Part shown: positions 41,652-61,050 of the stretch, piece after piece
Layout: every line of letters begins with the position of its first letter
Position numbering within the stretch: the first letter of the stretch is position 1
NCBI GenBank assembly: GCA_964530945.1
Contig: CAZHCJ010000002.1
Location: 14,899-78,898, forward strand
Direction of reading: 5' to 3'
Length of the DNA stretch: 64,000 nt
Source of the DNA: Candidatus Woesearchaeota archaeon
GTDB taxonomy: Archaea > Nanobdellota > Nanobdellia > Pacearchaeales > GW2011-AR1
Notes under the pieces: generated by a model
Told to the model about the DNA's origin: nothing
Seen by the model: the letters and a program-made list of their open reading frames with translations, nothing else
Databases searched by the model: none
Program-made: the position numbers and the translations under genes

Positions 41652-41658
41652 ATTAATA

Positions 41659-47420: not shown

Positions 47421-47591
47421 CCTAAGAATTCAATGGATGTTTCAGTATTTTTGGATGAGAAATATACTTAATTCTTTACATAATTTTTGAGAAATAAATG
47501 TTGTCCTCGAGAACCAAAACCTTAATAAACGTCTCTTTATCTCTATAAATACTTCTTAATCAATCTTAAATTGAGTGAAAGGAGGTTAAAA

Positions 47592-48305: not shown

Positions 48306-48374
48306 TTTTTTATTTTTAAGAATATTTTTTATTTTTTTGCTTAAGTTTAAATAAACAAAATAACAGAAACTAGT

Positions 48375-48890
48375 ATGAAAAAATCACGTAAAAGAAGAAT
48401 AAAGAATGCATTTAGAGGTCGCTATTTAGTACTTTTTGTATTATGGTTTTTAGCATATGTTGCATTAAATGTCTATTTTAATGAATTATATGTTAGTCTG
48501 GAAATATGGAGCTCATACAATCAATTATTTCTAATTCCTTTTGTATTGTTCAACTTCTTAATTGTTCCTTTTCTTATTTCTCTAACAGTAAATCTTAGCA
48601 TTTTGCGTTTCAAAGAAGCAGGAAGTGGTTTTGGAGATAGAAGTGCATCAGGAGTTGGAGGTGTTGGGGCTTTGATAGGAATTGTTGCCGGCGCTTGCCC
48701 GGGATGTTTTGTCGGTTTGTTTCCCGCAGTTTTAGGTATTTTTGGAGTAAGTGCAACGCTTTCTGCCTTGCCTTTATTCGGGTTGGAATTACAAGTGCTT
48801 TCTTCTGCTCTCTTGTTGTTGGCCATATATTTGTTAACCAAAGATATTGTTTGCGAAGTTCCTTTGGAGATGAAAGGAGGTGACAAGTAA
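48375..48890 (+). CDS. membrane protein with intramembrane CPGC motif
   Basis: GIVAGACPGCFVGLFPAVLG inside a hydrophobic helix. Confidence 0.4.
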   Translation: MKKSRKRRIKNAFRGRYLVLFVLWFLAYVALNVYFNELYVSLEIWSSYNQLFLIPFVLFNFLIVPFLISLTVNLSILRFKEAGSGFGDRSASGVGGVGALIGIVAGACPGCFVGLFPAVLGIFGVSATLSALPLFGLELQVLSSALLLLAIYLLTKDIVCEVPLEMKGGDK

Positions 48891-49295
48891 ATGAATAGAA
48901 AATTAATTTTAGGAATAGGTGTAATTGTGGTGGTGTTTGTTTTGTTTTTTGCTTTTGCAGGAAATGAATCTCAAGGTGATGTTGTTTCTGAATCAGAAGA
49001 AAATCAGGCGAGTACACGGGCTGTGAAGGAGTTCGATGTTGTTGCTAGAAATTGGGAATTCGTTCCAGGAACGATAGAGGTGAATCAAGGAGACAGGATT
49101 GTGTTGAATGTTGAAAGTGTGGATGGGGATCATGGAATAATGATTTCTGAATTTGGAGTAAACGAGCACTTGTCTCCCGGAGAAGAAACAATGATAGAGT
49201 TTGTTGCAGACAAGAAAGGAACATTCACGTTTTTTTGTAATGTTTATTGTGGGGCAGGACACTCTAATATGAGAGGAGAGCTTATTGTGAGATAA
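48891..49295 (+). CDS. membrane-anchored cupredoxin-domain protein with CuA-type copper ligand pattern
   Basis: H (DGDHGIMI) ... FCNVYCGAGHSNM = C-x3-C-G-x2-H-x2-M as in COX II/N2OR CuA; SD GGAGGTG upstream. Confidence 0.6.
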   Translation: MNRKLILGIGVIVVVFVLFFAFAGNESQGDVVSESEENQASTRAVKEFDVVARNWEFVPGTIEVNQGDRIVLNVESVDGDHGIMISEFGVNEHLSPGEETMIEFVADKKGTFTFFCNVYCGAGHSNMRGELIVR

Positions 49296-49296
49296 A

Positions 49297-49701
49297 ATGA
49301 AATACCTCATAATACTCGTTTTGTCATTGCTTGGATTTTTCTTAGCTGGCTACATAAATCTTAAAACGGAAAGGAAAGAAAAGCTTGTTTGTGTTATTGG
49401 AAATGATTGCAATAAAGTTATAAAGAGCAAATATGGAAAAACTTTTGGTATGGACAACACTTTTCTTGGGATGATTTATTATCTTGTTGTTTTGATTTTG
49501 GCTCTTGACGTTTTGATTTTTCCTTGGATAGTTAGCGTTGGTTTGTTTTACTGGGTGTTTTTTCTCATCACTTTGGGAGCTGCCCTTTTCTCTGTGTATC
49601 TAACCATTATACAATTGTTTGTAATTAAAGAGTTGTGTGAGTATTGCCTTCTTACGGCTTTAAACACAATATTAATATTTGTACTGTTTATTGTTTTGTA
49701 A
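49297..49701 (+). CDS. VKOR-family (vitamin K epoxide reductase-like) membrane thiol oxidoreductase, the DsbB-analog partner of DsbA-like proteins
   Basis: Loop Cys pair CVIGNDC, SKYGKTFGM, and CEYC CxxC at the start of the last TM. Confidence 0.6.
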   Translation: MKYLIILVLSLLGFFLAGYINLKTERKEKLVCVIGNDCNKVIKSKYGKTFGMDNTFLGMIYYLVVLILALDVLIFPWIVSVGLFYWVFFLITLGAALFSVYLTIIQLFVIKELCEYCLLTALNTILIFVLFIVL

Positions 49702-49702
49702 A

Positions 49703-50293
49703 ATGAAATTTTCAAAAAAAGAAACCAAAGATTTGACGTTTGCCGGAATAATGATTTCTTTAGCTTTTGCCATACTTCTTGCAGGAGGATTCAATATTTT
49801 AAGTGAAGGGTTTTTCAGTGTTTTCATAATTGCGTTTTTTACCGCCGGAATTGGGTTTTTATTGCATGAACTGATGCATAAATTTGTTGCTCAGCGTTAT
49901 AAAATGTGGGCAGAGTTTCGTGCAGATTATAAAATGCTTTGGGTTGCAATAGCTTTCGCATTTTTCGGATTTATTATTGCGGCACCAGGAGCAGTTTACA
50001 TTCGTGGAAGAATCACAAATGAAAAAAATGGGAAGATTTCTCTTGCAGGTCCTATGACAAACCTAGTACTTGCGATTTTGTTTTTAATTCCTTTACTTTT
50101 AGTTAGTTTTAGTTCGCAAATTCTCTATGCGTTTTTCAGTTTTGGCTTAACAATTAATTCTTTGCTTGCGGCATTTAACATGATTCCGGTTATGCCTTTT
50201 GACGGTGCAAAGATAATAAAATGGAATAAAGAATGGTATTACTTTACTTTGCTTGCAGGGGTCGGCCTTTTTATTCTGAGTTTTGTGGTTTGA
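49703..50293 (+). CDS. site-2 protease family (M50) intramembrane zinc metalloprotease
   Basis: HELMHK inside TM and downstream AAFNMIPVMPFDGAKI (LDG-type third ligand motif). Confidence 0.6.
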   Translation: MKFSKKETKDLTFAGIMISLAFAILLAGGFNILSEGFFSVFIIAFFTAGIGFLLHELMHKFVAQRYKMWAEFRADYKMLWVAIAFAFFGFIIAAPGAVYIRGRITNEKNGKISLAGPMTNLVLAILFLIPLLLVSFSSQILYAFFSFGLTINSLLAAFNMIPVMPFDGAKIIKWNKEWYYFTLLAGVGLFILSFVV

Positions 50294-50326
50294 TAGTTTT
50301 ATAAACGCTTTTGATTATTTTAAAAA

Positions 50327-50818
50327 ATGGAAAATAAGCATGTGGGTTATCTTGTTTTAGGAATCGCTGTTGTTTTAGTTGGAATCATATTCTTATATCA
50401 AAACGCTATGCAAGAGATAGTTTATCTTAGCTGTGGTTTAGAACACAGTGTTACATGTCCCATGAATCAAACCATAATGCAACAAACCTATTTGGCCTTG
50501 GGAATTGTAGGTATTTTAGTAGTTATTGCTGGTCTGTTAATATTTAGCAAACCTAAAGAGAGAATCATTGTTAAAGAAAAGAAAGTTAAAGTTAAAGAAA
50601 AACGTAAAAGGCCAAGTGTTAAAGACCTAAGTGCTAAGGAGAAAAAAGCCTTGGATTTGATTGAAAAAGAAGAAGGCGCGATGTTCCAATCTGAACTGAA
50701 AGAAAAGCTAGATATAGGAAAAGTCGGAATGACTCGCCTTTTAGATAAACTTGAAGCTAAACAATTCTTGGAAAGGAAAAGAAGAGGAATGAATAACATT
50801 GTTGTGCTGAAGTATTAG
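50327..50818 (+). CDS. membrane-tethered winged-helix transcription regulator with extracytoplasmic Cys pair (copy 1)
   Basis: TM1, loop SCGLEHSVTCPMNQ, TM2, K/R-rich then wHTH ...MTRLLDKLEAKQFLERKRRGMNNIVVL. Confidence 0.55.
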   Translation: MENKHVGYLVLGIAVVLVGIIFLYQNAMQEIVYLSCGLEHSVTCPMNQTIMQQTYLALGIVGILVVIAGLLIFSKPKERIIVKEKKVKVKEKRKRPSVKDLSAKEKKALDLIEKEEGAMFQSELKEKLDIGKVGMTRLLDKLEAKQFLERKRRGMNNIVVLKY

Positions 50819-50861: not shown

Positions 50862-51080
50862 ATGAAAATAGACACAACGAAGATGAGTTCTAGAGGACAA
50901 ATAGTTATTCCTAGAGATTTACGCGAAGGCATAAATGCAGGAGAAAAATTGATAGTTATAAGGAAAAAAGACGAAATAATATTGAAAAAATCACTTCCTG
51001 AGAATGCCTTATGGTCTGAAAAATCTTTGTCAAAAACGTGGCTGAATAAAGAGGAAGACGAAATATGGAAAGATTTGTGA
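50862..51080 (+). CDS. mazE: MazE/AbrB-family antitoxin
   Basis: MSSRGQIVIPRDLRE. Confidence 0.6.
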   Translation: MKIDTTKMSSRGQIVIPRDLREGINAGEKLIVIRKKDEIILKKSLPENALWSEKSLSKTWLNKEEDEIWKDL

Positions 51081-51397
51081 AAGGAGATGTTGTTGTCATG
51101 GATTTCCCTTTTTCTAATTTAAAAAATTCTAAAAGAAGACCTGCGCTGGTGATTAAAGTTCCTAAAGGAGATGATTTAATTGTATCTCAAATAACAGGAA
51201 AATCTTATGAAGAAGATTTAGAAATTGAGATTACAAAGAAAGATTTTGCAAAAGGTAAGTTGAAAGTAAACAGCTATCTTAGAATAGATAAATTTTTTTC
51301 AATTGAGAAATATCTTATCAAATATAAAATCGGAAAGTTAAAACCTAAGAAATTTAATGAGATAATTGATTCCATAATCGATTTTTTGAAAAAGTGA
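51065..51397 (+). CDS. mazF: MazF/PemK-family toxin (mRNA interferase)
   Basis: KGDVVVMDFPFSN...RPALVIKV matches the MazF N-terminal core; overlaps the antitoxin. Confidence 0.65.
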   Translation: MERFVKGDVVVMDFPFSNLKNSKRRPALVIKVPKGDDLIVSQITGKSYEEDLEIEITKKDFAKGKLKVNSYLRIDKFFSIEKYLIKYKIGKLKPKKFNEIIDSIIDFLKK

Positions 51398-51498
51398 TTT
51401 TTTTTCTATTTTGGGATGGTTTTATCTAAAACCTTCAAAAAGTTCCATGTAACTAGTTACACCGAAGCGGTTATAATAAATGATTTCTTGGGTTTTGC

Positions 51499-52128
51499 AT
51501 GGTTAAGAAAAAATCAACAGGCAAAAAAACAGATTGGGAGTTTTATGCTCAGATAGGAGTTGTAGTAATATTAGCTGGCATATTGATATATTCTTTAAAT
51601 CTTCCTAGTGTTTCTGCTTCAGGAGTTATTCCTACCGGAGTTCCAGAGGTTTATGGAGAAGAGCTCGGTATTACATATGATGATGTTTCACCTCAAAACC
51701 AGCAACTTGCTGATAAAACTATAAGATTACTTGGCAACATAGATCGTTTGGAAACTCTTGACGAATCTAAGATGGGGCGTTACATAAACATATTGTATAG
51801 TATGAATAATGGAATCTCTTGTGAGTATTGTTGTGGGGCTCGTTCAGTAATATTTGAAAACGGACAACCGGCCTGTGGGTGTGCACATAGTTATGCTATG
51901 CGTGGTCTGACAAAATACTTGTTAATAAATCATCCTGATATGAATGATGAACAGATACTTGAAGAAGTAGGGAAATGGAAAACATTATTTTTCCCCGGAA
52001 TCATTCAAGGTAAAGCAGATATAATGGAAAGCCAAGGACTTGATACGGATTATTTGAGTTTGACAACAAATAAGTATAGAGGAATAGAGCAAGGGCAGGT
52101 AAGCGGAGGAATGATTGGCGCTTGTTAA
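51499..52128 (+). CDS. membrane-anchored secreted Cys-rich protein ending in ...SGGMIGAC
   Basis: TM near N-terminus; CEYCCGARS...CGCAHS; C-terminal tail shared with the next small ORF. Confidence 0.45.
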   Translation: MVKKKSTGKKTDWEFYAQIGVVVILAGILIYSLNLPSVSASGVIPTGVPEVYGEELGITYDDVSPQNQQLADKTIRLLGNIDRLETLDESKMGRYINILYSMNNGISCEYCCGARSVIFENGQPACGCAHSYAMRGLTKYLLINHPDMNDEQILEEVGKWKTLFFPGIIQGKADIMESQGLDTDYLSLTTNKYRGIEQGQVSGGMIGAC

Positions 52129-52146: not shown

Positions 52147-52317
52147 AATGAAAATAAATAAAGATAAGGCTAGAGTTGCATTGTGGGTCGTGATAGGAGT
52201 GCTTTTGCTTGCTGTAGTGTATGTGGTGTTTTTCAAAGACGCATCAACAGCTTCAACACTAAGCGCTAATTCAGGACAAGCTGCAAGTGCTTATAGCGGA
52301 ATGGTTGGTGGCTGTTA
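52147..52317 (+). CDS. small membrane-anchored peptide (56 aa) ending in ...SGMVGGC
   Basis: SD GAGGAGG 6 nt upstream; below the track size cutoff; C-terminal motif matches the preceding protein. Confidence 0.35.
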
Positions 52318-52381
52318 AAACTTTTAAAAGTTTTAACTCAGAGGATTGGTTTGAGATAAAACTAACTTTCAGACAAATAAA

Positions 52382-52861
52382 ATGAACAAAAAATTTTTAA
52401 TAGGAATGGGAGTATTGGCATTAATCTTTTTAGTCGTAGTCTTACTCCCAAGTCCAAGTGCTGCAGATTATGAAAATATTAATGCTGTTGAAAGCGAGAT
52501 AGAAATTTATAAATCGGCTACATGTGGGTGCTGTGGAATTTACACAAGCTATTTTGACGGAAAAACAAGTCCAGATATAGAATCTTTGAATGTTCAAGAT
52601 ACTTATTCTATTAAAAGAGAACACGGCGTTCCTCCTGAATTAGAAAGTTGCCATACTACCTTAATTGATGGATACTTTGTTGAAGGACATATTCCTTTAG
52701 AAGCTATTGAAAAACTTTTATCTGAAAAACCGGATGTTGCAGGAATTGCTATGCCCGGAATGCCTTCTGGAAGTCCAGGAATGCCAGGGCCTAAAAGAGG
52801 AGATTTTGTAATATACAGTGTAAACCATGATGGAAGCTATCAAGAGTTCATGAGGATATAG
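52382..52861 (+). CDS. DUF411-like (CopG-type) periplasmic metal-binding protein
   Basis: Signal peptide; CGCCGIY motif, CHTTLIDGYFVEGHIP, Met/Pro-rich GIAMPGMPSGSPGMPGP. Confidence 0.55.
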   Translation: MNKKFLIGMGVLALIFLVVVLLPSPSAADYENINAVESEIEIYKSATCGCCGIYTSYFDGKTSPDIESLNVQDTYSIKREHGVPPELESCHTTLIDGYFVEGHIPLEAIEKLLSEKPDVAGIAMPGMPSGSPGMPGPKRGDFVIYSVNHDGSYQEFMRI

Positions 52862-52870
52862 TTAGGAAAA

Positions 52871-53398
52871 ATGGATAAAAAACTTTTTTCTTTATTTTTT
52901 GGATGGATTTTTTTAATATCTTTTTCTAAATTAGTTTCTGCACATTGTCCCTTGTGTACTATTGGAGCTGGGGCGGCCGCAGGAGCAGCTGTTTGGTTAG
53001 GGATTAGCAAAGTTGTAGTTGCATTGTTTATTGGGGCTTTTGCAATGTCAATGGGGATATGGTTTTCAAATATTAAATATTTGAAAAAGAAACGTTTTCC
53101 TTTCCAGAAAACCCTAATTGTTTTAGGTGTCTTTCTTTTGACATTCATTCCTTTATTGCCCATAATTAGCGCAATAGGTCCATTGTATTTGTCTTTTATT
53201 GGAGAATATGGAACAACTTACGCCTTTAATTACTCTATTTTAAGTGGGCTTTTTGGAGGGATTTTAGTTTTTTCAGCCCCAGGTTTAAGCAAAAAATTAA
53301 CCCAACTAAGAAAAGGAAAAATGCTTCCTTTCCAAGGAATCTTGATAACATTCTCATTGTTAATCTTCACAGGGGGGCTTATACAAGTTTTAATTTAA
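52871..53398 (+). CDS. membrane protein with N-terminal HCPLC motif
   Basis: SAHCPLCTIGAGAAAGAAV then several TM. Confidence 0.4.
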   Translation: MDKKLFSLFFGWIFLISFSKLVSAHCPLCTIGAGAAAGAAVWLGISKVVVALFIGAFAMSMGIWFSNIKYLKKKRFPFQKTLIVLGVFLLTFIPLLPIISAIGPLYLSFIGEYGTTYAFNYSILSGLFGGILVFSAPGLSKKLTQLRKGKMLPFQGILITFSLLIFTGGLIQVLI

Positions 53399-53824
53399 AT
53401 GGAAATTTTAACACTTGTTTTGCTTGGAGTTATTCTATTATTTTTTATATTTTTAGCAATGAAAAACCTAATCGGAAGTGAAAGGATTTGTGCAATATGC
53501 TTTTCAGTTCTGTTCACTTGGATATTTTTACTTCTAGGGTATTTTTGGGGGTTGTTTTTCAATAAAATAATAATAGCCATTTTGATGGGGATGAGTGTGT
53601 TAGGAATATATTATGTTGCCGAGAAAAAAGTCAAAAAAAGATTCTTGGTTTTTAGGTTGCCTTTTTTACTGACATTAATATTTGTTGTTTATTTTGTTTT
53701 AGAAGAATTTATTTTAGAAAGTTTTATTTTATTAGGCGTTTTATGGGTATTTTTCATCCTAATTTATTCATTCAAATTTAATGGATTTGCAAAAAAACTT
53801 GTGGAGTGCTGCAAAAAATGGTAA
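53399..53824 (+). CDS. membrane protein, C-terminal CCKKW
   Basis: Hydrophobic ORF. Confidence 0.35.
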   Translation: MEILTLVLLGVILLFFIFLAMKNLIGSERICAICFSVLFTWIFLLLGYFWGLFFNKIIIAILMGMSVLGIYYVAEKKVKKRFLVFRLPFLLTLIFVVYFVLEEFILESFILLGVLWVFFILIYSFKFNGFAKKLVECCKKW

Positions 53825-54279
53825 AGAGAAAAAGCAATAATGGGAACAGCAATGCAGTTTTATATGGTGTGTTGGCAGGTGTAGGATTGTTAGTATTTTA
53901 TGTTTTAGTTGTTTCTCTTTTTCAAAGCGTGGATTTCGCTCTTTTGAATATTAGAAGTTTGTGGTATTTGGTCATTCCTTTGGTAATAGGTTTTGGAACG
54001 CAAATAGGTCTTTATAGCTCAATACGTCACACTGCTACTGTCACGGGAACCGCTGCGGCCACGGGAGGGATTTCTGCAGGAGGAATGTTAGCATGTTGTA
54101 GCCATTTCCTTTTGAACATAATTCCTTTGGCAGGAGCATCTGGTTTGGCTATATTTCTTATGAAATACCAGCCTGCATTTCTTGGAGTGGGAATTGCTTC
54201 AAGTATTTTTGGAATTGGATTGATGGTTAAGCATAAAAAATCTATGAAAAAAGGTTTGAAAGGAGGTAAATGTCATTAA
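53806..54279 (+). CDS. membrane protein with intramembrane ACCSH motif
   Basis: GGISAGGMLACCSHFLLNIIPLAG; C-terminal GGKCH. Confidence 0.4.
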   Translation: MLQKMVKRKSNNGNSNAVLYGVLAGVGLLVFYVLVVSLFQSVDFALLNIRSLWYLVIPLVIGFGTQIGLYSSIRHTATVTGTAAATGGISAGGMLACCSHFLLNIIPLAGASGLAIFLMKYQPAFLGVGIASSIFGIGLMVKHKKSMKKGLKGGKCH

Positions 54280-54813
54280 ATGAATAAAAAAATTTTACTT
54301 TATGGTGCTTTAGGTTTGGTGGTTTTAGTCTTAGCCCTTTTCACAATTTTTCCAGGAATGATTTATGCAGTAAAAGATGCCGGAATTACAGGGAATAGTC
54401 TTTCAAATTCTACAAATGACAAATGTTCTCCTGCTCCAGGTTATGATGAAGAATCATGGAGAGAACACATGAGTCATCATCCAAATATATACAAAGAGTG
54501 TTTTGTCTCTGATCTAGAAAGTGATGAATTTGAAGAATTTGTCGAAAGTGATAATGTTTTCATAATAAACACTCATACCCCGTATATTGGGGAAATAGAA
54601 GGAACAGATTTGATTGCTAAAGACTGGCAAAATATAGCCTCTTATGAAGATCAGTTGCCAGAAAATAAGAATGCACCTATAGGGGTTTATTGTAGAAGTG
54701 GAAGTATGTCTTCGAGTGCTGCTAGCCAATTAATTGATTTGGGCTATACAAATGTTTACAATCTTGAAGGTGGAATGAATGCCTGGCGGGATTCAGGAAG
54801 AACTTTGATTTAA
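54280..54813 (+). CDS. membrane-anchored rhodanese-domain sulfurtransferase
   Basis: IGVYCRSGSMSSSAASQLIDLGYTNVYNLEGGMNAW (active-site Cys loop). Confidence 0.7.
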   Translation: MNKKILLYGALGLVVLVLALFTIFPGMIYAVKDAGITGNSLSNSTNDKCSPAPGYDEESWREHMSHHPNIYKECFVSDLESDEFEEFVESDNVFIINTHTPYIGEIEGTDLIAKDWQNIASYEDQLPENKNAPIGVYCRSGSMSSSAASQLIDLGYTNVYNLEGGMNAWRDSGRTLI

Positions 54814-54870
54814 CTTATTTTTATTAATTTAAATAAGAAGTTTTATTAATTAATCTTAGTTCTTGCTTTT

Positions 54871-55365
54871 ATGAAACCTCGTTATTTGGGTATATCCATT
54901 GTCATTGTTAGCCTTGTTGTTTTAGGGGGCCTCTTTTATCTTAATTCTAGTTTAAATAAACAGAACTTTGAGAATTGTATAACTTCTTGCGAAATGCAGG
55001 AAAACACTTCATGTTCCGTAGAATCATGTAATTTGGAAAGAGGCCATAATGATTTTGAGGAATTTATCTCTATATTAGAAATTTTAGTTGCGTTCCTTGC
55101 AGGAATAGGATTTTACCTTTCTTTAACAAAAAAAGAAAAGATAATTGAACAGAAAGAATATGATTTGAGTAAATTAAACAAAGAAGAAAAAAGGGTTTTT
55201 TTGCTTGTTAAGAAAAATAAAGAAAAAGGGATTTATCAAAGTAATATTGTAAAAGAGTTTGATTTTTCAAAATCTAAAGTGACTCGGATATTAGATCGTT
55301 TAGAACAATCTAAACTGGTTGAGAGAAAAAGGCGCGGGATGACAAATCTTATTGTCCTTAAATAA
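54871..55365 (+). CDS. membrane-tethered winged-helix regulator with extracytoplasmic 4-Cys segment (copy 2)
   Basis: TM1, NCITSCEMQENTSCSVESC, TM2, wHTH ending ERKRRGMTNLIVLK (same ending as copy 1). Confidence 0.55.
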   Translation: MKPRYLGISIVIVSLVVLGGLFYLNSSLNKQNFENCITSCEMQENTSCSVESCNLERGHNDFEEFISILEILVAFLAGIGFYLSLTKKEKIIEQKEYDLSKLNKEEKRVFLLVKKNKEKGIYQSNIVKEFDFSKSKVTRILDRLEQSKLVERKRRGMTNLIVLK

Positions 55366-55424
55366 AATCAGTTTCAGGTGTAAAACTAGTTTCACGTTAT
55401 ATTTATAAACCGTTTTTTTAAGTC

Positions 55425-55643
55425 TTGTGTATGAAAAAAGAGATTGTTGTCTTGAATATAAAAAATATTGATGTTAATCATTGTCTTGCTCTTCCAGAGT
55501 TGGGAATTAATGAAGAATTAATTCCTGAAAAAAAGATTGCAGTTGAGTTTGTTGTAGATAAAAAAGGAAGTTTTACATTTTTTTATAATGTTTATTATGG
55601 AGCAGGGCATAACTCAGTGAGTAGGAGATTGATAGTAAAATAA
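55425..55643 (+). pseudogene. degenerate remnant of the CuA-type cupredoxin (copper ligands lost)
   Basis: VEFVVDKKGSFTFFYNVYYGAGHNSVSRRLIV aligns with IEFVADKKGTFTFFCNVYCGAGHSNMRGELIV of 48891-49295 with both Cys replaced by Tyr and Met by Val; N-terminal cupredoxin barrel missing. Confidence 0.45.
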
Positions 55644-55662
55644 AGATGAAAGGAGGTTTAAT

Positions 55663-56409
55663 ATGTCGAAAGAAACAATTACATTAAAAAGAGACACTTT
55701 GTGGAAAGTTGCTACAGGTATTTTTGCGTTATTATTTATAGTTGCATTGTTTTCGGGAGGGCTTAATTTTTCGGGACCTGATAGTCAAGGAACTTCAGGA
55801 AACAGCGTGGTTCAACAACCAAATCAACGGCCTTCAATAGTGGAAGCTAGTGTTGATGATGATCCTGTTTTTGGAAATGAAAATGCTCCTGTAACAATGA
55901 TAGAATTTAGTGATTACCAGTGTCCTTTTTGTAGAAAATTCTGGACAGAAACATTACCACAAATAAAATCAGAATATATTGATACAGGTAAAGTTAAATT
56001 TGTTTACCGTGATTTTCCTTTGAATAGTATACATCCAAGTGCCCAGGCAGCGGCAGAAACTGCTGAATGTGTGAGAGATAACTATAGTGAAGATGCTTAT
56101 TGGGAAATACATGATAAGATTTTCTCAGAGCAAAATATTCTTGATGGAGGAGACCCTATAATAGGTCCTGTAAAAGGAACAGTGCAATTTAGTGAAAATG
56201 ATCTAAAGAATTGGGCAAGTGATCTAGGATATGAAATAGGAGGTTGTCTTGATTCTGGAAAATTCACGAGCGAAGTTCAAAAAGATATTACTGATGCAAC
56301 AGCCGCAGGAGGTCGTGGAACACCATATTTTGTCATTAATGGTCAACCATTGAGCGGAGCACAACCTTTTAGTTCATTTAAGCAGGTAATTGATGCAGAA
56401 TTATCTTAA
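55663..56409 (+). CDS. DsbA-like thiol:disulfide oxidoreductase, membrane-anchored (copy 2)
   Basis: SD AAAGGAGG; FSDYQCPFCRKFW; same architecture as copy 1 (ITLKRDTLWKVATGIFALLF). Confidence 0.7.
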   Translation: MSKETITLKRDTLWKVATGIFALLFIVALFSGGLNFSGPDSQGTSGNSVVQQPNQRPSIVEASVDDDPVFGNENAPVTMIEFSDYQCPFCRKFWTETLPQIKSEYIDTGKVKFVYRDFPLNSIHPSAQAAAETAECVRDNYSEDAYWEIHDKIFSEQNILDGGDPIIGPVKGTVQFSENDLKNWASDLGYEIGGCLDSGKFTSEVQKDITDATAAGGRGTPYFVINGQPLSGAQPFSSFKQVIDAELS

Positions 56410-56453
56410 AAAAATTTAATTTATTTTTATTTTTTAATTCTTTATTATAAAAA

Positions 56454-56609
56454 ATGGATAAAACAATCTTTTTAGGACACCATCCTCTGAATGACCCCAC
56501 ATTGGTAGGAACTGGCGCCACCTCAAATACAGGAGGGTTTATCATAGCAGGAATGTTCTTGTTGTTCTTTATAGGATTAATTTACTGGTTAGCCAAAAAA
56601 TCTCGCTAG
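56454..56609 (+). CDS. small membrane peptide (51 aa)
   Basis: Below track cutoff; single TM. Confidence 0.25.
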   Translation: MDKTIFLGHHPLNDPTLVGTGATSNTGGFIIAGMFLLFFIGLIYWLAKKSR

Positions 56610-56654
56610 CCTACTAACGAAAGATTTAAATAAACATATGTATGATAATATCAT

Positions 56655-57017
56655 ATGATAGACAAGAACATATTAAAAACATGTCACAGTGAAGGTTATG
56701 AAGAAGATGATATTTATGGCGCGTATAAAATATTTTTTGGAACTCTTGTGAGTGAGTCAAGATTAAGAATAATTAATGTCTTAAGAAAAGGTAAAAAAAA
56801 TGTTTCAGGGATTATTAAAGAATTAAAAATGGATCAAACAAGCGTTTCACACAATCTTTCAAGGCTTAAACAATGTGGATTTGTTGATTCCAAAAGAAAT
56901 GGAAAATTTGTTTATTATGAATTAAACGAGAAAACAATTAATCCTCTGATGGATTTAATTGATAAACATATGTCAAGACATTGTTTGCACATACTCAAGG
57001 AGATAAAAAATGAATAA
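56655..57017 (+). CDS. ArsR/SmtB-family metalloregulator
   Basis: LRIINVLRKGKKNVSGIIKELKMDQTSVSHNLSRLKQCGFVDSKRNGKFVYYEL HTH plus N- and C-terminal Cys/His. Confidence 0.75.
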   Translation: MIDKNILKTCHSEGYEEDDIYGAYKIFFGTLVSESRLRIINVLRKGKKNVSGIIKELKMDQTSVSHNLSRLKQCGFVDSKRNGKFVYYELNEKTINPLMDLIDKHMSRHCLHILKEIKNE

Positions 57018-57495
57018 AATAAATTTGATGGTTTTTTTAGCAATAGCATTTATTGTTTTTAGCTTTGCTTCTGTTCCAACTATTTTGGCACATAGTGATG
57101 AAACACTTTTAGAGGCAGAACATTTAGTTGAAGAACAAATTTCTTGCGATGAGCTTACAAATACTCAATTAGCAGCAATAGGAGATTATTATATGGAACA
57201 GATGCATCCTGGAGAAGAGCATGAGTATATGGATGAGATGATGGGTGGAGAAGGCTCAGAAAGTTTGGAAGCGATGCATATAAACATGGCATACAGATTT
57301 TATTGTGATGGCTCATATGAAAATTCAGAATACGGGATTGCCGCAAATAATATGCCTATGATGAATAATTATTTCAGTAATTCTAGTTACATGGGTTTTC
57401 AATGGATGCCTTTGTCGGTTGCAATAATTCTTGTTTTGTTAGTTGTTTTGGTTGCCTTACAAGTTAAAAAGAAATCAAAAGGAAGTAAAAAATGA
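57010..57495 (+). CDS. secreted Met/His-rich putative copper-binding protein with C-terminal TM anchor
   Basis: Signal peptide; MEQMHPGEEHEYMDEMMGG, NNMPMMNNY. Confidence 0.5.
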   Translation: MNKINLMVFLAIAFIVFSFASVPTILAHSDETLLEAEHLVEEQISCDELTNTQLAAIGDYYMEQMHPGEEHEYMDEMMGGEGSESLEAMHINMAYRFYCDGSYENSEYGIAANNMPMMNNYFSNSSYMGFQWMPLSVAIILVLLVVLVALQVKKKSKGSKK

Positions 57496-57583
57496 TTAAA
57501 AAAATATTTAACTACAGCTTGCCAATTTTTTTATTGGTTTTATCTCAGCGCATACTGGAGATGATTATTATACTCATCATTCT

Positions 57584-57706
57584 ATGATGGATGGTTATTC
57601 CGGATGGTTTTTTGGAGGGGTTTTGATGATTTTAGTTGTAATTGCTCTGATTTTAGGGATAATTTGGTTGATTAAACAAATAAGTGAAAAACCAAAAAAG
57701 AGATAA
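57584..57706 (+). CDS. small membrane peptide (40 aa), paralog of 60303-60509
   Basis: MMDGYSGWFFGG...LGIIWLIKQISEK vs MGYGMMGSYFGGGFMW...LGILWLIKELKK. Confidence 0.3.
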   Translation: MMDGYSGWFFGGVLMILVVIALILGIIWLIKQISEKPKKR

Positions 57707-57708
57707 AA

Positions 57709-57909
57709 ATGGCATTACTAAAGAAGAAATGTGCTTACTGCGGAGACAAGATTGAAAGAGAAAAAGAGATATTCAGAGATGTGAAAACCCCTGGATTTGT
57801 AGGAACAAGAAAGAAAGCATTCATGTCTGAGGAGCATGCAGATAAATATGAAAAAGAAGTTGAAGAGCATATGAAAAAACCTTCTAAGGGAGGGGGCTGT
57901 TGTGGTTAA
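57709..57909 (+). CDS. TRASH/YHS-like metal-binding small protein with C-terminal GGGCCG
   Basis: CAYCGDKI...KKAFMSEEHADKYEKE resembles the YHS/TRASH fold (CxxC ... YYFCSeeC..F) with Met/His in place of the second Cys pair. Confidence 0.45.
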   Translation: MALLKKKCAYCGDKIEREKEIFRDVKTPGFVGTRKKAFMSEEHADKYEKEVEEHMKKPSKGGGCCG

Positions 57910-57928
57910 ACAAAATAAAGAATTGTTT

Positions 57929-58045
57929 ATGTGTGAAGAATGCGAATTGAGTTATGATGATAAAAAATTTGCTAAGAAATGTGAATCATGGTGCAAAAAA
58001 CACAAATCTTGCAATCTTGAAATAACTAGACACGCTGTGAATTAG
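57929..58045 (+). CDS. small Cys-rich zinc-ribbon/TRASH-like peptide (38 aa)
   Basis: [28 protein letters not shown]: CxxC-x12-CxxxC-x5-C. Confidence 0.3.
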
Positions 58046-58046
58046 A

Positions 58047-60278
58047 ATGAAAAAACCTGTTAAAGCAATAATTTCAATACAAGGAATGCATTGTGCTAGT
58101 TGCGCATCTAACATAAAGAAAAATCTTGGGAAGGTTAAGGGCGTGAAAGAGGCTAGTGTGAGTCTTATGACAAATAAGGCTGTTGTTGAACTTGATGGAG
58201 AAAAAGTTCCTGAAGAGAAATTAAGAAAAGCTATTTCTTCTGTTGGGAATTATGAAGCTTTAAACATTGAGTACTCTGACTCTGGAAAAAAGAGTGAGGA
58301 AAAACAAAAACACGAAGAGTACTCTAAAGAGCATAAACATCCTCATGGTGTTGCAAGCAATGCCGAGGAGAAAAATTGGAAACGCAAGATGGCTTGGGGG
58401 TGGATTATAACCCTTCCTGTAGCATTTCTTATGTTTTCAGAAAGATTTTTTAATATTGAAATAGGTCATATCTTGACCACTTACTTAATTCTAATACTTT
58501 CTTTTCCAGTAGTTTTTATTTTAGGCTGGAACACAATAAAAGGTGGCTTCAAGGGCCTTTCAAAATTTTACTTTAATATGGATTTGCTCATAGCTCTTGG
58601 AACGATTATAGCATATGTTTCTGGAATACTAACTTTCTTTTTACCTCTTGAAAATTATTCTGGTGTTGCAGCAATGATTATGACCATTTTTCTTACGGGA
58701 AAGTATATTGAAGCCCGTGCTCGCGGAAGAGCAGGACAGGAAATAAAGAAACTTTTGGAGTTAGGGGCTAAAAAGGCTAGGCGTTTAAAAAATGGCGAAG
58801 AAATTGAAATAGATGTTTCTGAAATAAAAAAAGGAGATATTTTGATAGTTAAACCAGGAGAAAAGATACCTACCGACGGGGTTGTTGTTAAAGGGGGAAG
58901 TAGTGTTGATGAATCAATGGTTACAGGAGAAAGTATTCCTATAGACAAAACAAAAGGTAGTAATGTTATTGGGGCAACGGTAAATCAAGATGGGATTTTA
59001 CATATTAAAGCTACAAAAGTGGGCAAAGACACATTTCTCTCACATATAATTGAATTAGTTGAAAAGACCCAAAGTTCAAAAGTCCCAATACAAGCTTTTG
59101 CAGACAAAATAACAAATATTTTTGTCCCTACAGTAATACTCATTACAATTTTAACTTTTATAGGATGGATTCTTTTTGGCGCAAGTGTCAGCAATGCTCT
59201 TGCCATAGCAATAGCTGTTTTAGTTATAGCTTGTCCGTGTGCCCTTGGACTAGCGACGCCGACTGCTTTAATGGTTGGCTCTGGAATTGGAGCTAAAAAT
59301 GGAATTTTAATTAGAAAAGGCGAGGCAATACAAACAATGAAAGAAGTTAAAACAATTGTATTAGATAAAACAGGAACAATTACTAAAGGAAAACCAGAGG
59401 TTGTTGAAGTGTATTCTTTGGGTAAAGAAAAAGAATTGATTGGAATTGCTGCAAGTTTAGAAAAGCTGAGCGAGCATCCATTATCTCATGCCATAGTTGA
59501 AAAAGGTAAAGAAATGAAAGCAAAAACCTTGAAAGTTAAAAATTTCAAAATACTTAGAGGGCGAGGAGTTCAAGGAAAAATTGGCGGTAATGATATTCTT
59601 ATTGGAAATAGTAATTTAATCAAAGAGAAAAATATTCCTCTCGGAAAACTCAAGAAAAAAGTTTCTGAGTTTGAAAATAGAGGTCATACTACAATAATCG
59701 TTTCTGAAAATAAACGTGTTTTGGGAATTATTGGTGTTGCAGATGCACCTAAAGATGATTCTAAAGAAGCAATTTTAAAACTTAAAAAAATGGGGTTGGA
59801 AGTGGTTATGATGACTGGAGATAATGAAGCGACAGCTAAAGCAATTGGCAAAAAAGTGGGCATTAATGAGGTTCTTGCAAGCGTCATGCCTGGAGATAAA
59901 GCAAAAGAAGTAAAATCTTTGCAAAATAAAAATAAAGGAATGGTTGCTTTTGTCGGAGATGGAATAAATGACGCTCCTGGATTGAAGCAAGCAAACGTGG
60001 GAATTGCGATGGGAACAGGAACAGACATCGCTATTGAAGCAGGGGACATAGTGATAGTTAAAGGCTCTCTTAATGGAGTAGTCCAAGCAATAAATCTAAG
60101 TAATGCAACATTCAGCAAGATTAAACAAAATGTATTTTGGGCATTCGCATATAATATCATTGCCATACCTGTAGCAATCGCTGGTTTGTTGCATCCTATA
60201 ATTGCAGAGCTTGCAATGGCTCTTTCGTCTGTAAGTGTTGTAGGAAATGCGAATCTGCTAAGAAGAAAAAAGATTTAA
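58047..60278 (+). CDS. copA: copper-translocating P1B-type ATPase CopA
   Basis: [18 protein letters not shown] ([14 protein letters not shown]), [25 protein letters not shown]. Confidence 0.9.
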
Positions 60279-60302: not shown

Positions 60303-60509
60303 ATGAAAAAAGATAATTTGTTAGGGATTGTGGCTCTGGCAGTCATAGTACTGGCTTTGTTATTTGGATTCTTCTCTATGGGGTATGGGATGATGGGCTC
60401 GTATTTTGGAGGAGGTTTTATGTGGATTTTCATGTTCATAATCTGGATATTGGTTATTGTGTTTCTTATTTTAGGAATTTTGTGGTTAATCAAAGAATTG
60501 AAGAAGTAG
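60303..60509 (+). CDS. small Gly/Met-rich membrane protein
   Basis: 68 aa, 2 TM, paralog of the 57584 peptide. Confidence 0.4.
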   Translation: MKKDNLLGIVALAVIVLALLFGFFSMGYGMMGSYFGGGFMWIFMFIIWILVIVFLILGILWLIKELKK

Positions 60510-60586: not shown

Positions 60587-60796
60587 ATGGAAACAACAAT
60601 ACGTCTTTCTGGAAACGTTAAAAAACAGTTAGATAAGATGAAGATTCATAGTAAAGAAAGCTATAGTGATGTAATAGAATTTCTCATAGAAGATCATCTG
60701 GAATTGAGTGAAGAAACAAAGAGAAGAATTAAAAAAGCAAAAAAAAGTGAAAATTGGATTTCCCATGAAGAAGTTAAAAAAAGATTTGGTTTATAA
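60587..60796 (+). CDS. antitoxin (METTIRL family), partner of RelE/ParE
   Basis: METTIRLSGNVKKQLDKMKIHSKESYSDVIEFLIE; stop overlaps the toxin start. Confidence 0.6.
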   Translation: METTIRLSGNVKKQLDKMKIHSKESYSDVIEFLIEDHLELSEETKRRIKKAKKSENWISHEEVKKRFGL

Positions 60797-61050
60797 TGGT
60801 AGAGATAAAATGGGAAGAAAATGTTTTGAGACAATTAGATAAGCTTCCAGATGTTATTTCTAAACGAATTGTTAAAAAAGTTGATTCATTAAGAATAAGC
60901 CCATTTTCAAAAATTAAAAAATTGAAGGGTGAAGATGTATTTAGATTAAGAATCGGAGATTATAGAATAATTTTAGATGTCGATGTTAAAAACAAATTAA
61001 TAAGAATCTTATATCTAGGACACAGAAAGAATATTTATAAGAAGAAATGA
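60796..61050 (+). CDS. RelE/ParE-family toxin
   Basis: ...VFRLRIGDYRIILDVDVKNKLIRILYLGHRKNIY canonical RelE/ParE C-terminus. Confidence 0.7.
   Translation: MVEIKWEENVLRQLDKLPDVISKRIVKKVDSLRISPFSKIKKLKGEDVFRLRIGDYRIILDVDVKNKLIRILYLGHRKNIYKKK

Follow-up and report, generated by a model that had tools for sequence, protein, structure and literature searches.

The window, a stretch of 64,000 nucleotides from a tiny DPANN archaeon, carries a real copper-defence gene cluster. Every open reading frame that the first-pass annotation had described at 52382-60278 exists on the + strand with the coordinates given there, and the conserved unit begins upstream of that range, its 5′ limit being the p209 gene at 51499. 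An ordinary copper pump and sensor stand beside at least six conserved, unnamed families of cysteine-motif proteins.

47571-50818, +, disulfide module adjacent to the cluster (Pfam), comprising the next six genes
47571-48305, +, DsbA (Thioredoxin_4 4.7e-24)
48375-48890, +, CPGC membrane protein
48891-49295, +, CuA-motif cupredoxin, C-x3-C-x3-H-x2-M (Cupredoxin_1 4.1e-12)
49297-49701, +, VKOR (VKOR 4.2e-25)
49679-50293, +, M50 protease (Peptidase_M50 1.1e-09)
50327-50818, +, TM-MarR1, membrane-anchored MarR-type regulator (DUF7343/MarR)
51449-51480, +, thiol-arm promoter: palindromic operator GTAACTAGTTAC (51449-51460) and TATA box TTATAATAAA (51471-51480)
51499-52128, +, p209, predicted N-in, membrane-anchored, extracytoplasmic protein, 209 aa
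52148-52318, +, p56, TM-anchored tether with Ala/Ser-rich linker, ending …SGMVGGC-COOH
52382-52861, +, membrane-anchored DUF411/CopG-like protein, C48-G-C50-C51 (PF04214, 6WIS)
52871-53398, +, HCPLC membrane protein, five predicted TM segments, C-terminus predicted outside (458 homologs, hydropathy, K/R counts)
53399-53824, +, CCKKW membrane protein, five predicted TM segments (354 cluster representatives)
53818-54279, +, ACCSH membrane protein, helical bundle (236 homologs)
54280-54813, +, p70::rhodanese fusion (p70 part ~54280-54504; active-site C138 at nt 54691-54693)
54871-55365, +, TM-MarR2, membrane-anchored, MarR-type (DUF7343 3.1e-11, MarR_2 1.4e-06)
55382-55409, +, second operator copy AAAACTAGTTTC with one mismatch (55382-55393) and TATA box (55397-55409)
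55431-55643, +, decayed paralog of the 48891-49295 cupredoxin (46% identity across 69 aa), lacking a TM segment
55663-56409, +, second membrane-anchored DsbA-like thioredoxin, CPFC (Thioredoxin_4 6.7e-33, DSBA 1.2e-14)
56625-56657, +, arsR promoter, TTTAAATA-N2-CATATG-N11-CATATG
56655-57017, +, ArsR/SmtB-family regulator (Pfam HTH_5, E 1.6e-12)
57010-57495, +, secreted Met/His-rich protein, C-terminally anchored (homologs, hydropathy)
57584-57706, +, p40 membrane peptide
57709-57909, +, p66, TRASH-like by pattern and orthologs, 66 aa, C-terminus GGGCCG
57902-58045, +, p47, 38-aa Cys peptide (DUF7128 below cutoff)
58047-60278, +, CopA, P1B-1-type Cu(I)-ATPase, single HMA domain, His-rich linker (Pfam, motifs)
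60303-60509, +, p68, small Met/Gly-rich membrane peptide, p40 paralog (homology)

The cysteine-motif families are syntenic with CopA throughout DPANN genomes, where the recurrent order is p209 and tail-bearing tethers, DUF411, HCPLC, CCKKW, ACCSH, a 70-aa HMSHH peptide (p70), then ArsR and CopA further on; Pacearchaeota and Woesearchaeota loci show the same gene order. Among 80 species-genome loci, HCPLC was found in 60, CopA in 59, p70 in 54, p209 in 53, DUF411 in 45 and CCKKW in 44.

CopA is identified by Pfam (E1-E2 ATPase 1.6e-60, HMA 1.9e-17) and by the motifs CASC16, TGE293, CPC396, DKTGT440, SEHP475, GDGIND637, AYN701 and MALSS724. An 88-bp gap separates the arsR/Met-His-rich pair from p40-p66-p47-copA-p68, and gene overlaps and short gaps suggest a single operon. 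The Met/His-rich protein had no match in a Pfam search, and its homologs occur in 15 loci, including bacterial ones with a SHOCT end; p40 and p68 homologs lie on both sides of CopA in two loci (L005/L007). The small Cys proteins matched neither unrelated families nor any other above cutoff. For p47 (38/47 aa) Pfam returned only the sub-cutoff DUF7128 match, and its domain recurs as the C-terminal domain of PadR regulators adjoining CopA in L086/L088. The earlier assignment of p66 to TRASH/YHS was not sustained, given no significant Pfam match and an hhalign E of 0.11 against YHS; the resemblance comes only from the pattern CxxC…F[CM][CS]xxH and from orthologs, all of which have a GG[SG]CCG terminus and CxxC…FC[CS]xxH.

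The ArsR identification held, although its metal site departs from the textbook arrangement: in the ortholog alignment the canonical alpha3 CxC and alpha5 DxHx10HxxH/E sites were not found, and a family-conserved variant, C73 with D103-x-H105-x4-C110-x-H112, takes their place. A conserved putative operator, CATATG-N11-CATATG, lies at arsR, whose start codon falls inside the second CATATG (leaderless); the 23 orthologous loci that were compared show this architecture, a few with 1-nt box variants, and the element is unique in the window, with 0 expected by shuffling. Hg, Cd and As systems likewise employ sensors of the ArsR family and CC-tail relays, and vicinal Cys tails are reminiscent of the C-terminus of MerA, so that a thiophilic metal or metalloid other than copper (Ag, Hg, Cd, As, Au) might be the target. 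We consider this highly improbable, as CopA carries the P1B-1 Cu/Ag signature (CPC, YN, MxxSS), the DUF411 protein matches CopG, bacterial relatives carry CsoR and YHS, and no MerA, ArsB/Acr3 or ArsC is present.

The three membrane proteins gave no match in Pfam and NCBIfam searches. Their Cys motifs, HCPLC, CxxC…CC-COOH (CCKKW) and MxxCCxH (ACCSH), are invariant in 458, 354 and 236 homologs, respectively, and are thus not due to chance. Hydropathy and K/R counts place H25-C26-P-L-C29 of HCPLC in the first outside loop, with an invariant M59-S-M61 in TM2, whereas the CCKKW cysteines are predicted inside, C31-x-x-C34 where TM2 meets the cytoplasm and C137-C138 within the C-terminal tail; these four residues are invariant and W141 nearly so. 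For ACCSH, an ATG start at 53818 was preferred over GTG at 53806. Its TM3 bears M90-x-x-C93-C94-S-H96, with M90, C93, C94 and H96 invariant (236 homologs at 60-76% identity; AF2 pLDDT 78), and its predicted cytoplasmic tail, …KGGKCH, has the Cys in 75/120 homologs and lacks it in 45/120. ACCSH has 224 relatives adjoining CopA in species genomes, bacteria included: CopA is present in 30 of the 34 loci flanked by 8 kb or more at either end, and lies downstream on the same strand in 52/55, among them loci of CPR, Nitrospirae and Ignavibacteria in which CsoR, YHS and DUF302 occur as well. In many bacteria no homolog of HCPLC, CCKKW or p209 was seen within 10 kb of ACCSH and CopA, so the system does not require a conduit of three proteins.

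The DUF411 protein (PF04214, E 3.4e-25) matches Pseudomonas aeruginosa CopG (6WIS, E 1.6e-20) with the CxCC, SCHT and MPxGSPGM ligand motifs aligned; because the last of these aligns, the Met/Pro-rich stretch formerly described as a tail, though present, is part of the conserved domain and no appendage. The reported membrane-anchored rhodanese does contain a rhodanese domain (PF00581, E 1.6e-11; active-site Cys138 aligned, including against 6mxv), predicted to be extracytoplasmic from hydropathy and K/R counts, and its gene proved to be a fusion with p70. The latter is a conserved, TM-anchored module of ~70 aa, C49…WREHMSHHP…C74, with EHMSHH between the two Cys, and its stand-alone form directly follows ACCSH in 54/80 loci.

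The rhodanese is accessory and mobile and no core part: the domain occurs in 19/66 loci carrying HCPLC and/or p70, fused to HCPLC in 11 and free in 8, with the p70 fusion seen only in this window, and a C-terminal rhodanese is fused to 15/120 among the HCPLC homologs listed. Sulfane-sulfur chemistry can accordingly be no more than an option. It would have the extracytoplasmic rhodanese charge the C-terminal Cys arms with persulfide, much as a SoxY-like carrier is loaded, trapping copper as Cu-S species. The intact active-site Cys, the predicted outside location and the repeated fusions to cluster proteins speak for it, and a C-terminal Gly-Gly-Cys arm recalls the GGCGG carrier arm of SoxY. The best PDB matches of ArsR are ArsR-family entries, namely 6o8k-6o8o, which we take to be the persulfide sensor SqrR, together with SmtB, NmtR and CzrA; however, the SmtB match is almost as good, and the window's ArsR has Asn at what is presumably the position of the first sensing Cys of SqrR. 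Moreover, 47 of the 66 loci have no rhodanese, the complete clusters L007/L012 among them, and genes for sulfide, thiosulfate and persulfide-dioxygenase functions are absent from the cluster, which makes this chemistry quite improbable. The earlier suggestion of sulfur-based copper handling thus fares well if the sulfur is that of cysteine thiolates, and weakly if it is sulfane sulfur.

At the 5′ end, p209 (1,748 homologs) has Cys sites at C108-x-x-C111-C112 and C126-G-C128-A-H130 and ends …GGMIGAC-COOH. The tail pattern M-[VI]-G-x-C recurs in 108/109 p209 homologs, a few tails being without Met (QVGSC, QVGNC), and small tethers with GMVGGC ends come after p209. In the 80 genome loci, 80 small tail-bearing ORFs were found, 77/77 lying within 771 bp of a p209 homolog, and the tail was found only on p209 and the small proteins next to it: 132 ORFs carry it in the genome loci, and on metagenome contigs every in-frame match (158/158) was either a p209 homolog or a small anchored protein. 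Tail sequences of p209 and tethers do not strictly co-vary. This flexible Met-Val-Gly-Gly-Cys tail, common to several cluster proteins, has not been described before.

A conserved element, GAAACTAGTTTC plus a TATA box, precedes the p209 gene, whose ATG lies 18 nt downstream of TTATAATAAA (leaderless). The sequence GWAACYAGTTWC is equally placed upstream of p209 in 39/52 orthologous loci, and the operator co-occurs with a neighbouring TM-MarR gene in 29/37. TM-MarR2 is predicted to span the membrane twice, with four Cys (36, 40, 48 and 53) in its extracytoplasmic loop and a winged helix in the cytoplasm. This gene, the decayed cupredoxin, the second DsbA and the small membrane peptides lie inside the originally noted range and had been passed over.

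In the adjoining disulfide module, where DsbA was likewise confirmed, the CPGC protein, the cupredoxin and TM-MarR have homologs that sit inside the copper cluster of relatives, the cupredoxin in 27/80 loci. Bacterial CuA assembly requires thiol-reductase-type chaperones, and a path from an outside CxxC over a membrane CC to an inside Cys resembles import by MerP, MerT and MerA; the thiol proteins might accordingly capture scarce copper and metallate the C-x3-C-x3-H-x2-M cupredoxin or import the metal, rather than detoxify it. Against this stand the exporter and repressor physically joined to the cluster and the lack of a cupredoxin in most loci, the inner copy here being decayed (Tyr in place of both CuA Cys; COX2/Cupredoxin_1 matches below cutoff). 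Furthermore, bacterial ACCSH occurs in csoR…copA arrangements, which should be copper-induced, since CsoR de-represses under copper excess. Acquisition is thus very improbable.

A stronger competitor, unlikely in our view but to be taken seriously, is a reductant relay of the Scs/Ccm type, in which the Cys pairs carry electrons instead of copper. Electrons would pass from cytoplasmic thioredoxin to the inner face of CCKKW, through ACCSH and HCPLC to the outside, where the tethers and a CcmH-like p209 with a swinging Cys at its C-terminus would reduce misoxidised surface thiols or keep CopG reduced under copper stress, opposing the adjoining DsbA/VKOR oxidising pathway. CPxC is a classic oxidoreductase motif, and thiol-redox proteins such as ScsC are known copper-tolerance factors (PMC5524982). 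On two high-GC contigs, p209 homologs lie beside a triple-thioredoxin protein with no copper genes in view, CcdA also being there in L180; triple-thioredoxin and DsbD_TM genes adjoin p209 homologs in L128/L180, a glutaredoxin-like/DsbD-like fusion replaces DUF411 and HCPLC in L086/L088, and L001 has a DsbD_TM gene with a copy of the operator sequence in front. Genes for a glutaredoxin-like and a thioredoxin-reductase-like product are found 9 kb upstream. For part of the system, the triple-thioredoxin/CcdA neighbourhood and the L086/L088 replacement favour electrons over copper as the cargo. Nevertheless, none of HCPLC, CCKKW and ACCSH resembles DsbD_TM, many bacteria with ACCSH and CopA show none of the other components within 10 kb, vicinal CC pairs make poor redox disulfides, and disulfide exchange among Cys at the inner face, the outer membrane half and the outer face of separate proteins needs large movements. 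Electron transfer also leaves the invariant Met and His near the Cys unexplained. Every conserved unnamed family has invariant Cys, and the Met and His beside every invariant Cys pair complete the customary Cu(I) ligand set; from this residue chemistry and the gene neighbourhood, the families are read as candidate Cu(I) binders.

The best reading, which we hold tentatively and at somewhat short of an even chance, couples a CopA efflux arm to a cysteine-thiol arm handling copper outside the membrane. The efflux arm would comprise the leaderless arsR/Met-His-rich pair followed by p40, p66, p47, copA and p68. The ArsR-family repressor would occupy CATATG-N11-CATATG, immediately 3′ of the TATA box, and release it when a thiophilic metal binds C73/H105/C110/H112; Cu(I) would then be exported by CopA, to which small CC-tailed Cys proteins of the cytoplasm would deliver it in the manner of CopZ or CopT. 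The GAAACTAGTTTC-operator promoter would drive the thiol arm (p209, p56, DUF411, HCPLC, CCKKW, ACCSH and p70::rhodanese), probably under a membrane-anchored MarR with Cys in its outside loop. Outside the membrane, the CcmH-like p209 and the short tethers, each with a flexible M-V-G-G-C-COOH arm, may act as mobile thiolate carriers alongside a CopG-type Cu-thiol oxidoreductase and the His/Met/Cys peptide p70. Cu(I) captured at the cell surface would be handed among Cys/Met/His sites of p209, CopG, p70, HCPLC and ACCSH, with cytoplasmic-face Cys sites in CCKKW and, where present, the ACCSH tail, and the rhodanese as an optional helper. It counts against such a cation relay that its energy source is not evident and its direction not defined. 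The ACCSH tails that have no Cys, the few Met-less p209 tails and the want of strict co-variation between p209 and tether tails likewise speak against this reading.

The copper homeostasis set, with its CopG-like DUF411, P1B-1 CopA, ArsR with conserved operator and syntenic Cys-motif proteins, goes well beyond a CopA/CopZ pair, as first proposed. With a probability that we would put a little below one half, the region may represent the core of a copper-defence island, composite in make-up and conserved among DPANN archaea, in which copper would be buffered and redox-converted at the surface, so that it neither attacks exposed thiols nor re-enters the cell.

The region is most safely described as a composite copper-defence island, in which a cytoplasm-sensing efflux arm is combined with an envelope arm of cysteine thiols. 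The source of the window is an archaeon of low GC content (about 34%), with thermosome and Dph2 genes upstream of the island, and its closest syntenic relatives are Pacearchaeota/Woesearchaeota (DPANN) genomes, where the island lies between Dph2 and SufC/NifU/cysteine-desulfurase genes. All the ORFs listed in the first-pass annotation are present, and the conserved cluster begins upstream of the range it had delimited (52382-60278), its first gene here being that of p209. Synteny across loci L001 to L009 and 80 species-genome loci gave a recurrent order: a protein of about 210-230 aa, one or two small proteins, DUF411, HCPLC, CCKKW, ACCSH, a protein of about 70 aa and, further along, ArsR and then CopA.

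Island genes discussed here, all on the + strand (window coordinates)
51499-52128, +, p209, membrane-anchored extracytoplasmic Cys protein
52148-52318, +, p56, small tether
52382-52861, +, DUF411/CopG-like protein
52871-53398, +, membrane protein named HCPLC after its Cys motif
53399-53824, +, membrane protein named CCKKW after its Cys motif
53818-54279, +, membrane protein named ACCSH after its Cys motif
54280-54813, +, p70 module fused to a rhodanese domain
56655-57017, +, ArsR/SmtB regulator
58047-60278, +, CopA

Toxin-antitoxin pairs stand at both ends of the island, MazE/MazF-PemK at 50862-51397 and RHH antitoxin/ParE at 60587-61050; the MazEF pair separates p209 from TM-MarR1, a membrane-anchored MarR-type regulator, at a place where the close relative L005 has an intergenic spacer only. 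Just upstream of the disulfide module, 45196-47205 encodes a secreted subtilase that has a DUF5667 domain and ends in a long, acidic stretch of low complexity. About 9 kb upstream, at 41421-42624, are a glutaredoxin-like protein (CPWC) and a thioredoxin-reductase-like flavoprotein (CALC), both recognised by reading the sequence, which could act as a cytoplasmic reductant source. Clusters of relatives (L005 9123-9806; L001 5110-5790) include a Met-rich polytopic membrane protein of about 227 aa with the segments CMSGMMIGMTIGM and GKCCGIMGAMEGMMAGFMGG, for which no Pfam domain and no match among the 26 window genes compared were found.

The efflux arm would run from ArsR to CopA, with CC-tailed small Cys proteins. 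CopA had been annotated as carrying intact HMA, CPC, DKTGT and HP motifs, and Pfam matches (E1-E2 ATPase, 1.6e-60; HAD, 1.1e-33; HMA, 1.9e-17) and motif positions agree on this, with TGE at residue 293, DKTGT at 440, HP (SEHP) at 475 and GDGIND at 637. The P1B-1 Cu(I)/Ag(I) signature is present (CPC396, AYN701, MALSS724), and the CxxC of the N-terminal HMA domain is CASC16.

The ArsR/SmtB identity of the regulator was borne out by HTH_5 (E 1.6e-12) and by PDB matches to SmtB, CzrA and NmtR. Its metal site departs from the canonical ones: alpha3 contains no Cys, the N-terminal C10 is not conserved in 23 orthologs and the alpha5 DxHx10HxxH/E is absent, but C73 and a candidate variant site, D103-x-H105-x4-C110-x-H112, are conserved in the ortholog alignment. 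SqrR/BigR persulfide sensors carry a Cys pair in alpha2 and alpha5. A sensor of the SqrR type was rejected for the window protein, which in the alignment with 6o8k has Asn at the position taken for the first sensing Cys, and a possible counterpart for the alpha5 Cys only.

The arsR promoter (56625-56657) has the architecture TTTAAATA-N2-CATATG-N11-CATATG, with the start codon within the second box; it is unique in the window and visible in the 23 orthologous loci compared, a few of which show 1-nt box variants. As the candidate ArsR operator, these conserved CATATG boxes take the place of the 7-1-7 palindrome TATGATAATATCATA at arsR, which is not enriched in the window and was discarded. Upstream of p209 stands a different palindrome, GTAACTAGTTAC (51449-51460), followed by a TATA box 10 nt downstream and by the ATG 18 nt past that box. 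At the same position, GWAACYAGTTWC occurs in 39 of the 52 orthologous loci, and in 29 of 37 it has a gene for a membrane-anchored MarR beside it, often in divergent orientation. The window holds a second copy:

Second p209-type operator
55382-55409, +, p209-type operator with one mismatch and a TATA box, before a decayed cupredoxin and the second DsbA

The cupredoxin remnant (55431-55643) is 46% identical to the intact cupredoxin at 48891-49295, has no TM segment and carries Tyr in place of both CuA cysteines, while still lying behind its own operator and TATA box. Pfam confirmed the second DsbA (6.7e-33).

Two small Cys proteins are encoded between ArsR and CopA: p66, a 66-aa protein, and p47, a peptide of 38/47 aa. 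The TRASH/YHS assignment of p66 found no significant support: the Pfam search (PF08394, PF04945) gave no significant match and hhalign of the p66 family against YHS neighbours reached E 0.11 over 16 columns. For p47, the sole match, to DUF7128, was below cutoff. The Met/His-rich protein, p66 and the small peptides had no significant match in Pfam or NCBIfam, and no unrelated family emerged for the small Cys proteins. The copR-copT-copA cluster of Sulfolobus encodes a TRASH-domain regulator and chaperone. Like it, the island has small Cys-rich proteins immediately upstream of copA; the p47 domain recurs in some relatives as the C-terminal domain of PadR-family regulators next to CopA (Woesearchaeota, L086 3990-4616 and L088 4224-4736), and p66 orthologs show the pattern CxxC…FC[CS]xxH, of which the window copy has FMSEEH. 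Unlike in Sulfolobus, Pfam TRASH/YHS models find no significant match here and the regulator is ArsR-type.

The envelope arm opens with p209, whose family numbers 1,748 homologs. It is anchored N-in with its domain outside, and C-E-Y-C-C-G-A-R, A-C-G-C-A-H-S and the C-terminus M-[VI]-G-x-C-COOH are its invariant motifs. The terminal Cys is kept in 109/109 homologs and the pentapeptide MVGGC in 81/109. The next protein, p56, consists of a TM anchor and an Ala/Ser linker with the end SGMVGGC. Across the 80 genome loci, the ending [MQ][VI]G[GSN]C was found on 132 ORFs, comprising 52 p209 homologs and 80 small anchored proteins; where a p209 homolog is in view, it is no more than 771 bp away from every small tail protein (77/77). 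Scanning metagenomes for …GMVGGC-stop gave 158 in-frame matches, all of them p209 homologs or small anchored proteins. The small tail proteins form two classes, one with a plain linker and often a cytoplasmic MDCC…CCKD…KGG extension, which the window p56 lacks, and one defined by GWTENEIMNYEMHG. Many tethers with the N-terminal extension (MDCC…(G)CCKD…KGG) are bitopic, with Cys clusters on both membrane sides.

MVGGC tethers with the N-terminal extension, examples
L068 8002-8235
L067 8304-8540
L051 7453-7722

A sorting or processing signal was rejected as an explanation of the tail, given that no peptidase is conserved (M50 protease in 2/80 loci) and that the motif has no TM segment after it. 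The tails of one genome co-vary strictly in L001 and L074 only, four loci with a variant p209 tail keeping MVGGC on their tethers, and such co-variation was not used as evidence. The literature search found neither the tail motif nor the gene cluster in any paper; the two operator motifs and the common C-terminal Cys arm appear to be undescribed so far. A perfect palindrome of 24 nt, GTTAAAACTTTTAAAAGTTTTAAC (52314-52337), reaches from the p56 stop codon into the 63 bp that precede DUF411 and could be an RNA hairpin or a protein-binding site.

SoxY is a sulfur carrier whose arm has a C-terminal GGCGG. The tail of p209 is similar in that an extracytoplasmic protein carries Gly-Gly-Cys at its very C-terminus by way of a flexible linker, a feature common to proteins that must visit several partners. 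Unlike SoxY, p209 is helical rather than Ig-like, and its tail has a conserved Met and stops at the Cys (M-V-G-G-C-COOH). In the loci inspected closely, the cluster genes included no Sox genes (SoxZ/A/B/X), and the likeness is a functional analogy only.

Saccharibacteria encode proteins of about 310 aa containing RPCCGNSTYFPDCNHGMAMLGLLEL and FWFPDTY and ending in GGGCSV or GGCGI.

Saccharibacteria proteins of about 310 aa
L075 6822-7754
L077 6981-7940
L089 8754-9713

These CPR proteins (…PCCG…DCNHGMAMLGL…GGGCSV) may be distant p209 relatives, but their similarity to p209 is weak, collinear and at motif level only.

A Pfam search with p209 gave no match at E<=0.1, CcmH and PCYCGC included; PCYCGC membership (PF13798) was also rejected by hhalign against a true PF13798 neighbour in L001 (E 0.12, CGC…RGL segment only). 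The AF2 model of p209 is confident (pLDDT 87.7) and all-helical. CcmH, a membrane-anchored three-helix thiol-oxidoreductase (PMC3884852), is the sole candidate structural match of this predicted helical bundle, and because a Foldseek search of the PDB with the model gave no match, the CcmH-like fold is a lead rather than evidence of family membership. The lead gains weight from the thioredoxin-like and CcdA neighbours of distant p209 homologs. In two high-GC metagenome contigs without copper genes in view (L128 218-2807; L180 6054-9321), the gene after a homolog ending PGMVGGC encodes an anchored protein in which a thioredoxin-like CxxC repeat occurs three times, and in L180 a DsbD_TM/CcdA gene comes next. 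Both the fold and these contexts speak for the main rival reading of the envelope arm, namely that its Cys pairs are an electron relay of Scs or Ccm type. Cytochrome c maturation thioreduction (DsbD/CcdA to CcmG to CcmH) likewise uses a membrane-anchored extracytoplasmic protein; p209, however, has no LRCxxC but CxxCC, CxC-x-H and the C-terminal Cys arm, and neither a Pfam CcmH match nor Ccm heme machinery was found.

The DUF411/CopG-like identity of the next protein was confirmed (PF04214, 88 bits against a cutoff of 27, E 3.4e-25; P. aeruginosa CopG 6WIS, E 1.6e-20). Aligned to 6WIS, it has CGCC, SCHT and MPGMPSGSPGM as its CxCC, His and MPxGSPGM motifs; the Met/Pro-rich tail ascribed to it is thus present but belongs to the conserved domain instead of being an add-on. 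A Cys-bridged tetranuclear Cu cluster and Cu oxidoreductase activity are known for P. aeruginosa CopG only (cited in PMC8456105). As in CopG/CopA clusters of Gram-negative bacteria, a DUF411 protein with these motifs adjoins a Cu(I) P-type ATPase and a metal-responsive repressor; in contrast to them, the window protein is membrane-anchored, archaeal and set amid six uncharacterised Cys-motif families, and the cluster has no multicopper oxidase or Cus system. In L086 and L088, a glutaredoxin-like/DsbD-like fusion (in L086 a 393-aa glutaredoxin-like + SfLAP/DsbD-like membrane protein, 8616-9797) fills the position of DUF411 and HCPLC, a further point for an electron relay.

Judging by their alignments, HCPLC, CCKKW, ACCSH and the other unknowns are conserved families, not noise. 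HCPLC has 458 homologs, in which A-H-C-P-L-C-T-x-G-A-G-A-A and M59-S-M61 are invariant; CCKKW has 354 cluster representatives with invariant C31-x-x-C34 and C-terminal C137-C138 and a nearly invariant W141; ACCSH has 236 homologs at 60-76% identity, whose invariant residues include G88, M90, C93, C94 and H96. Hydropathy and positive-inside counts place the CxxC of HCPLC in an outside loop, with its C-terminus outside, and the Cys residues of CCKKW and the ACCSH tail on the cytoplasmic side, while the AF2 model puts the CCSH motif of ACCSH near the outer end of TM3. None of the three had a significant Pfam or NCBIfam match, the DsbD_TM model included. A DsbD-like HCPLC was rejected (hhalign against two DsbD-like neighbours, E 0.045 and 0.4, over irrelevant segments), as was membership in MerT/MerF/MerC, with which the sole common feature is a vicinal CC in a TM helix. 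A CPGC membrane protein compared with ACCSH is not homologous to it.

ACCSH relatives occur in 224 stretches of a collection of 185,579 species genomes, and copies of 34-42% identity reach Saccharibacteria, Paceibacterota, Nitrospirae, Ignavibacteria, Aenigmatarchaeota and Micrarchaeota. CopA accompanies ACCSH in 30 of the 34 loci with at least 8 kb on both sides, and lies downstream on the same strand in 52/55. A stand-alone 70-aa anchored peptide, C…W-x-E-H-M-S-H-H-P…C, directly follows ACCSH in 54 of 80 loci (DPANN), while in bacteria a secreted "PGGHHREG" protein follows. Bacterial ACCSH loci also contain CsoR, YHS proteins (PF04945, 4e-11), DUF302 and DUF5676. Bacterial copper loci further encode an unnamed Cys-tail family of small membrane proteins (about 100 aa), which have an 'ICCAVPL' motif in a TM segment and an HFFMM motif and end in …GHGCC[SH].

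Membrane proteins of about 100 aa ending in GHGCC[SH]
L076 9480-9779
L079 8844-9140
L081 1951-2259
L078 13062-13376

Within bacterial ACCSH/CopA loci there is an ICMT (isoprenylcysteine carboxyl methyltransferase)-family gene (L079 9128-9805, by Pfam; L083 13369-14097, a similar sequence recognised by eye), which is intriguing in view of the C-terminal Cys tails.

The rhodanese had been described as membrane-anchored. The domain is genuine (PF00581, E 1.6e-11), with active-site C138 in VYCRSGSMS aligned to the active-site loop of 6mxv, but it shares its gene with the 70-aa p70 module, to which it is fused. Relatives have the domain as a fusion at the HCPLC C-terminus (11 loci; 15 of 120 listed homologs) or on its own (8 loci), or lack it, and the fusions tie it to the outside face of the system. 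Present in 19/66 loci, the rhodanese is accessory and not a core component. The sulfur-based copper handling proposed in the first-pass annotation stands in so far as the envelope arm is built from cysteine thiols, and only weakly as regards sulfane sulfur.

Scs, an envelope thiol-redox system, has been linked to copper tolerance (PMC5524982). Like Scs (suppressor of copper sensitivity), the island has several membrane and extracytoplasmic CxxC proteins tied to copper tolerance; unlike it, the island showed no sequence relationship to ScsA-D, its thioredoxin-fold proteins are DsbA and DUF411 only, and its Cys motifs include vicinal CC pairs and C-terminal arms. The mercury relay Mer comprises MerP, MerT and MerA, the last with a C-terminal CC tail. 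The island recalls it in having CxxC on the outside, a CC pair within a TM helix, Cys pairs facing the cytoplasm and, at C-termini, flexible CC tails (p66, …GGGCCG), and by analogy this layout would suggest hand-over-hand thiolate transfer of a soft metal. Unlike in Mer, these proteins matched no Pfam/NCBIfam family, the cluster showed no mercuric-reductase gene among its genes and the partner is an exporter.

Between metal and electrons, Cu(I) is the tentatively favoured cargo of the envelope arm because Met and His flank every invariant Cys pair, because DUF411 is a homolog of a Cu-thiol oxidoreductase and because ACCSH tracks CopA even without the other parts. Cu(I) transfer and an electron relay may both operate, since copper-binding thiols must stay reduced beside the DsbA/VKOR oxidising module. 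The kind of system is known but not this composition: there is no Pfam or NCBIfam model for at least six of the families (p209, MVGGC tethers, HCPLC, CCKKW, ACCSH and p70). A bolder proposal, put forward tentatively and in our estimate rather doubtful, is that the M-x-G-G-C-COOH tail serves as an extracytoplasmic carrier arm of a new kind: short tethers, two or three per cell, and a CcmH-like protein would swing their terminal thiolate between the Cys/Met/His sites of CopG, p70, HCPLC and ACCSH and, together with the inner-face CCKKW, would form an unrecognised transmembrane thiolate relay for Cu(I) or electrons that accompanies CopA in ultra-small archaea and partly also in CPR bacteria.

DPANN and CPR organisms have tiny genomes, yet they have kept this copper island of 9 kb and roughly 20 genes. 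About half of it consists of families without a name, Pfam model or literature, and these unnamed families, whose Cys, Met and His motifs are invariant, count their members in hundreds to thousands. Although the organisms are uncultured, the hypothesis is open to direct in vitro testing, thanks to the shortness of the tail peptide and to the conservation of the two operator motifs. If the tail arm and relay were true, cells without an outer membrane would have a new way of handling metals or thiols in the envelope, and at least six 'hypothetical' families would gain functions in one step.
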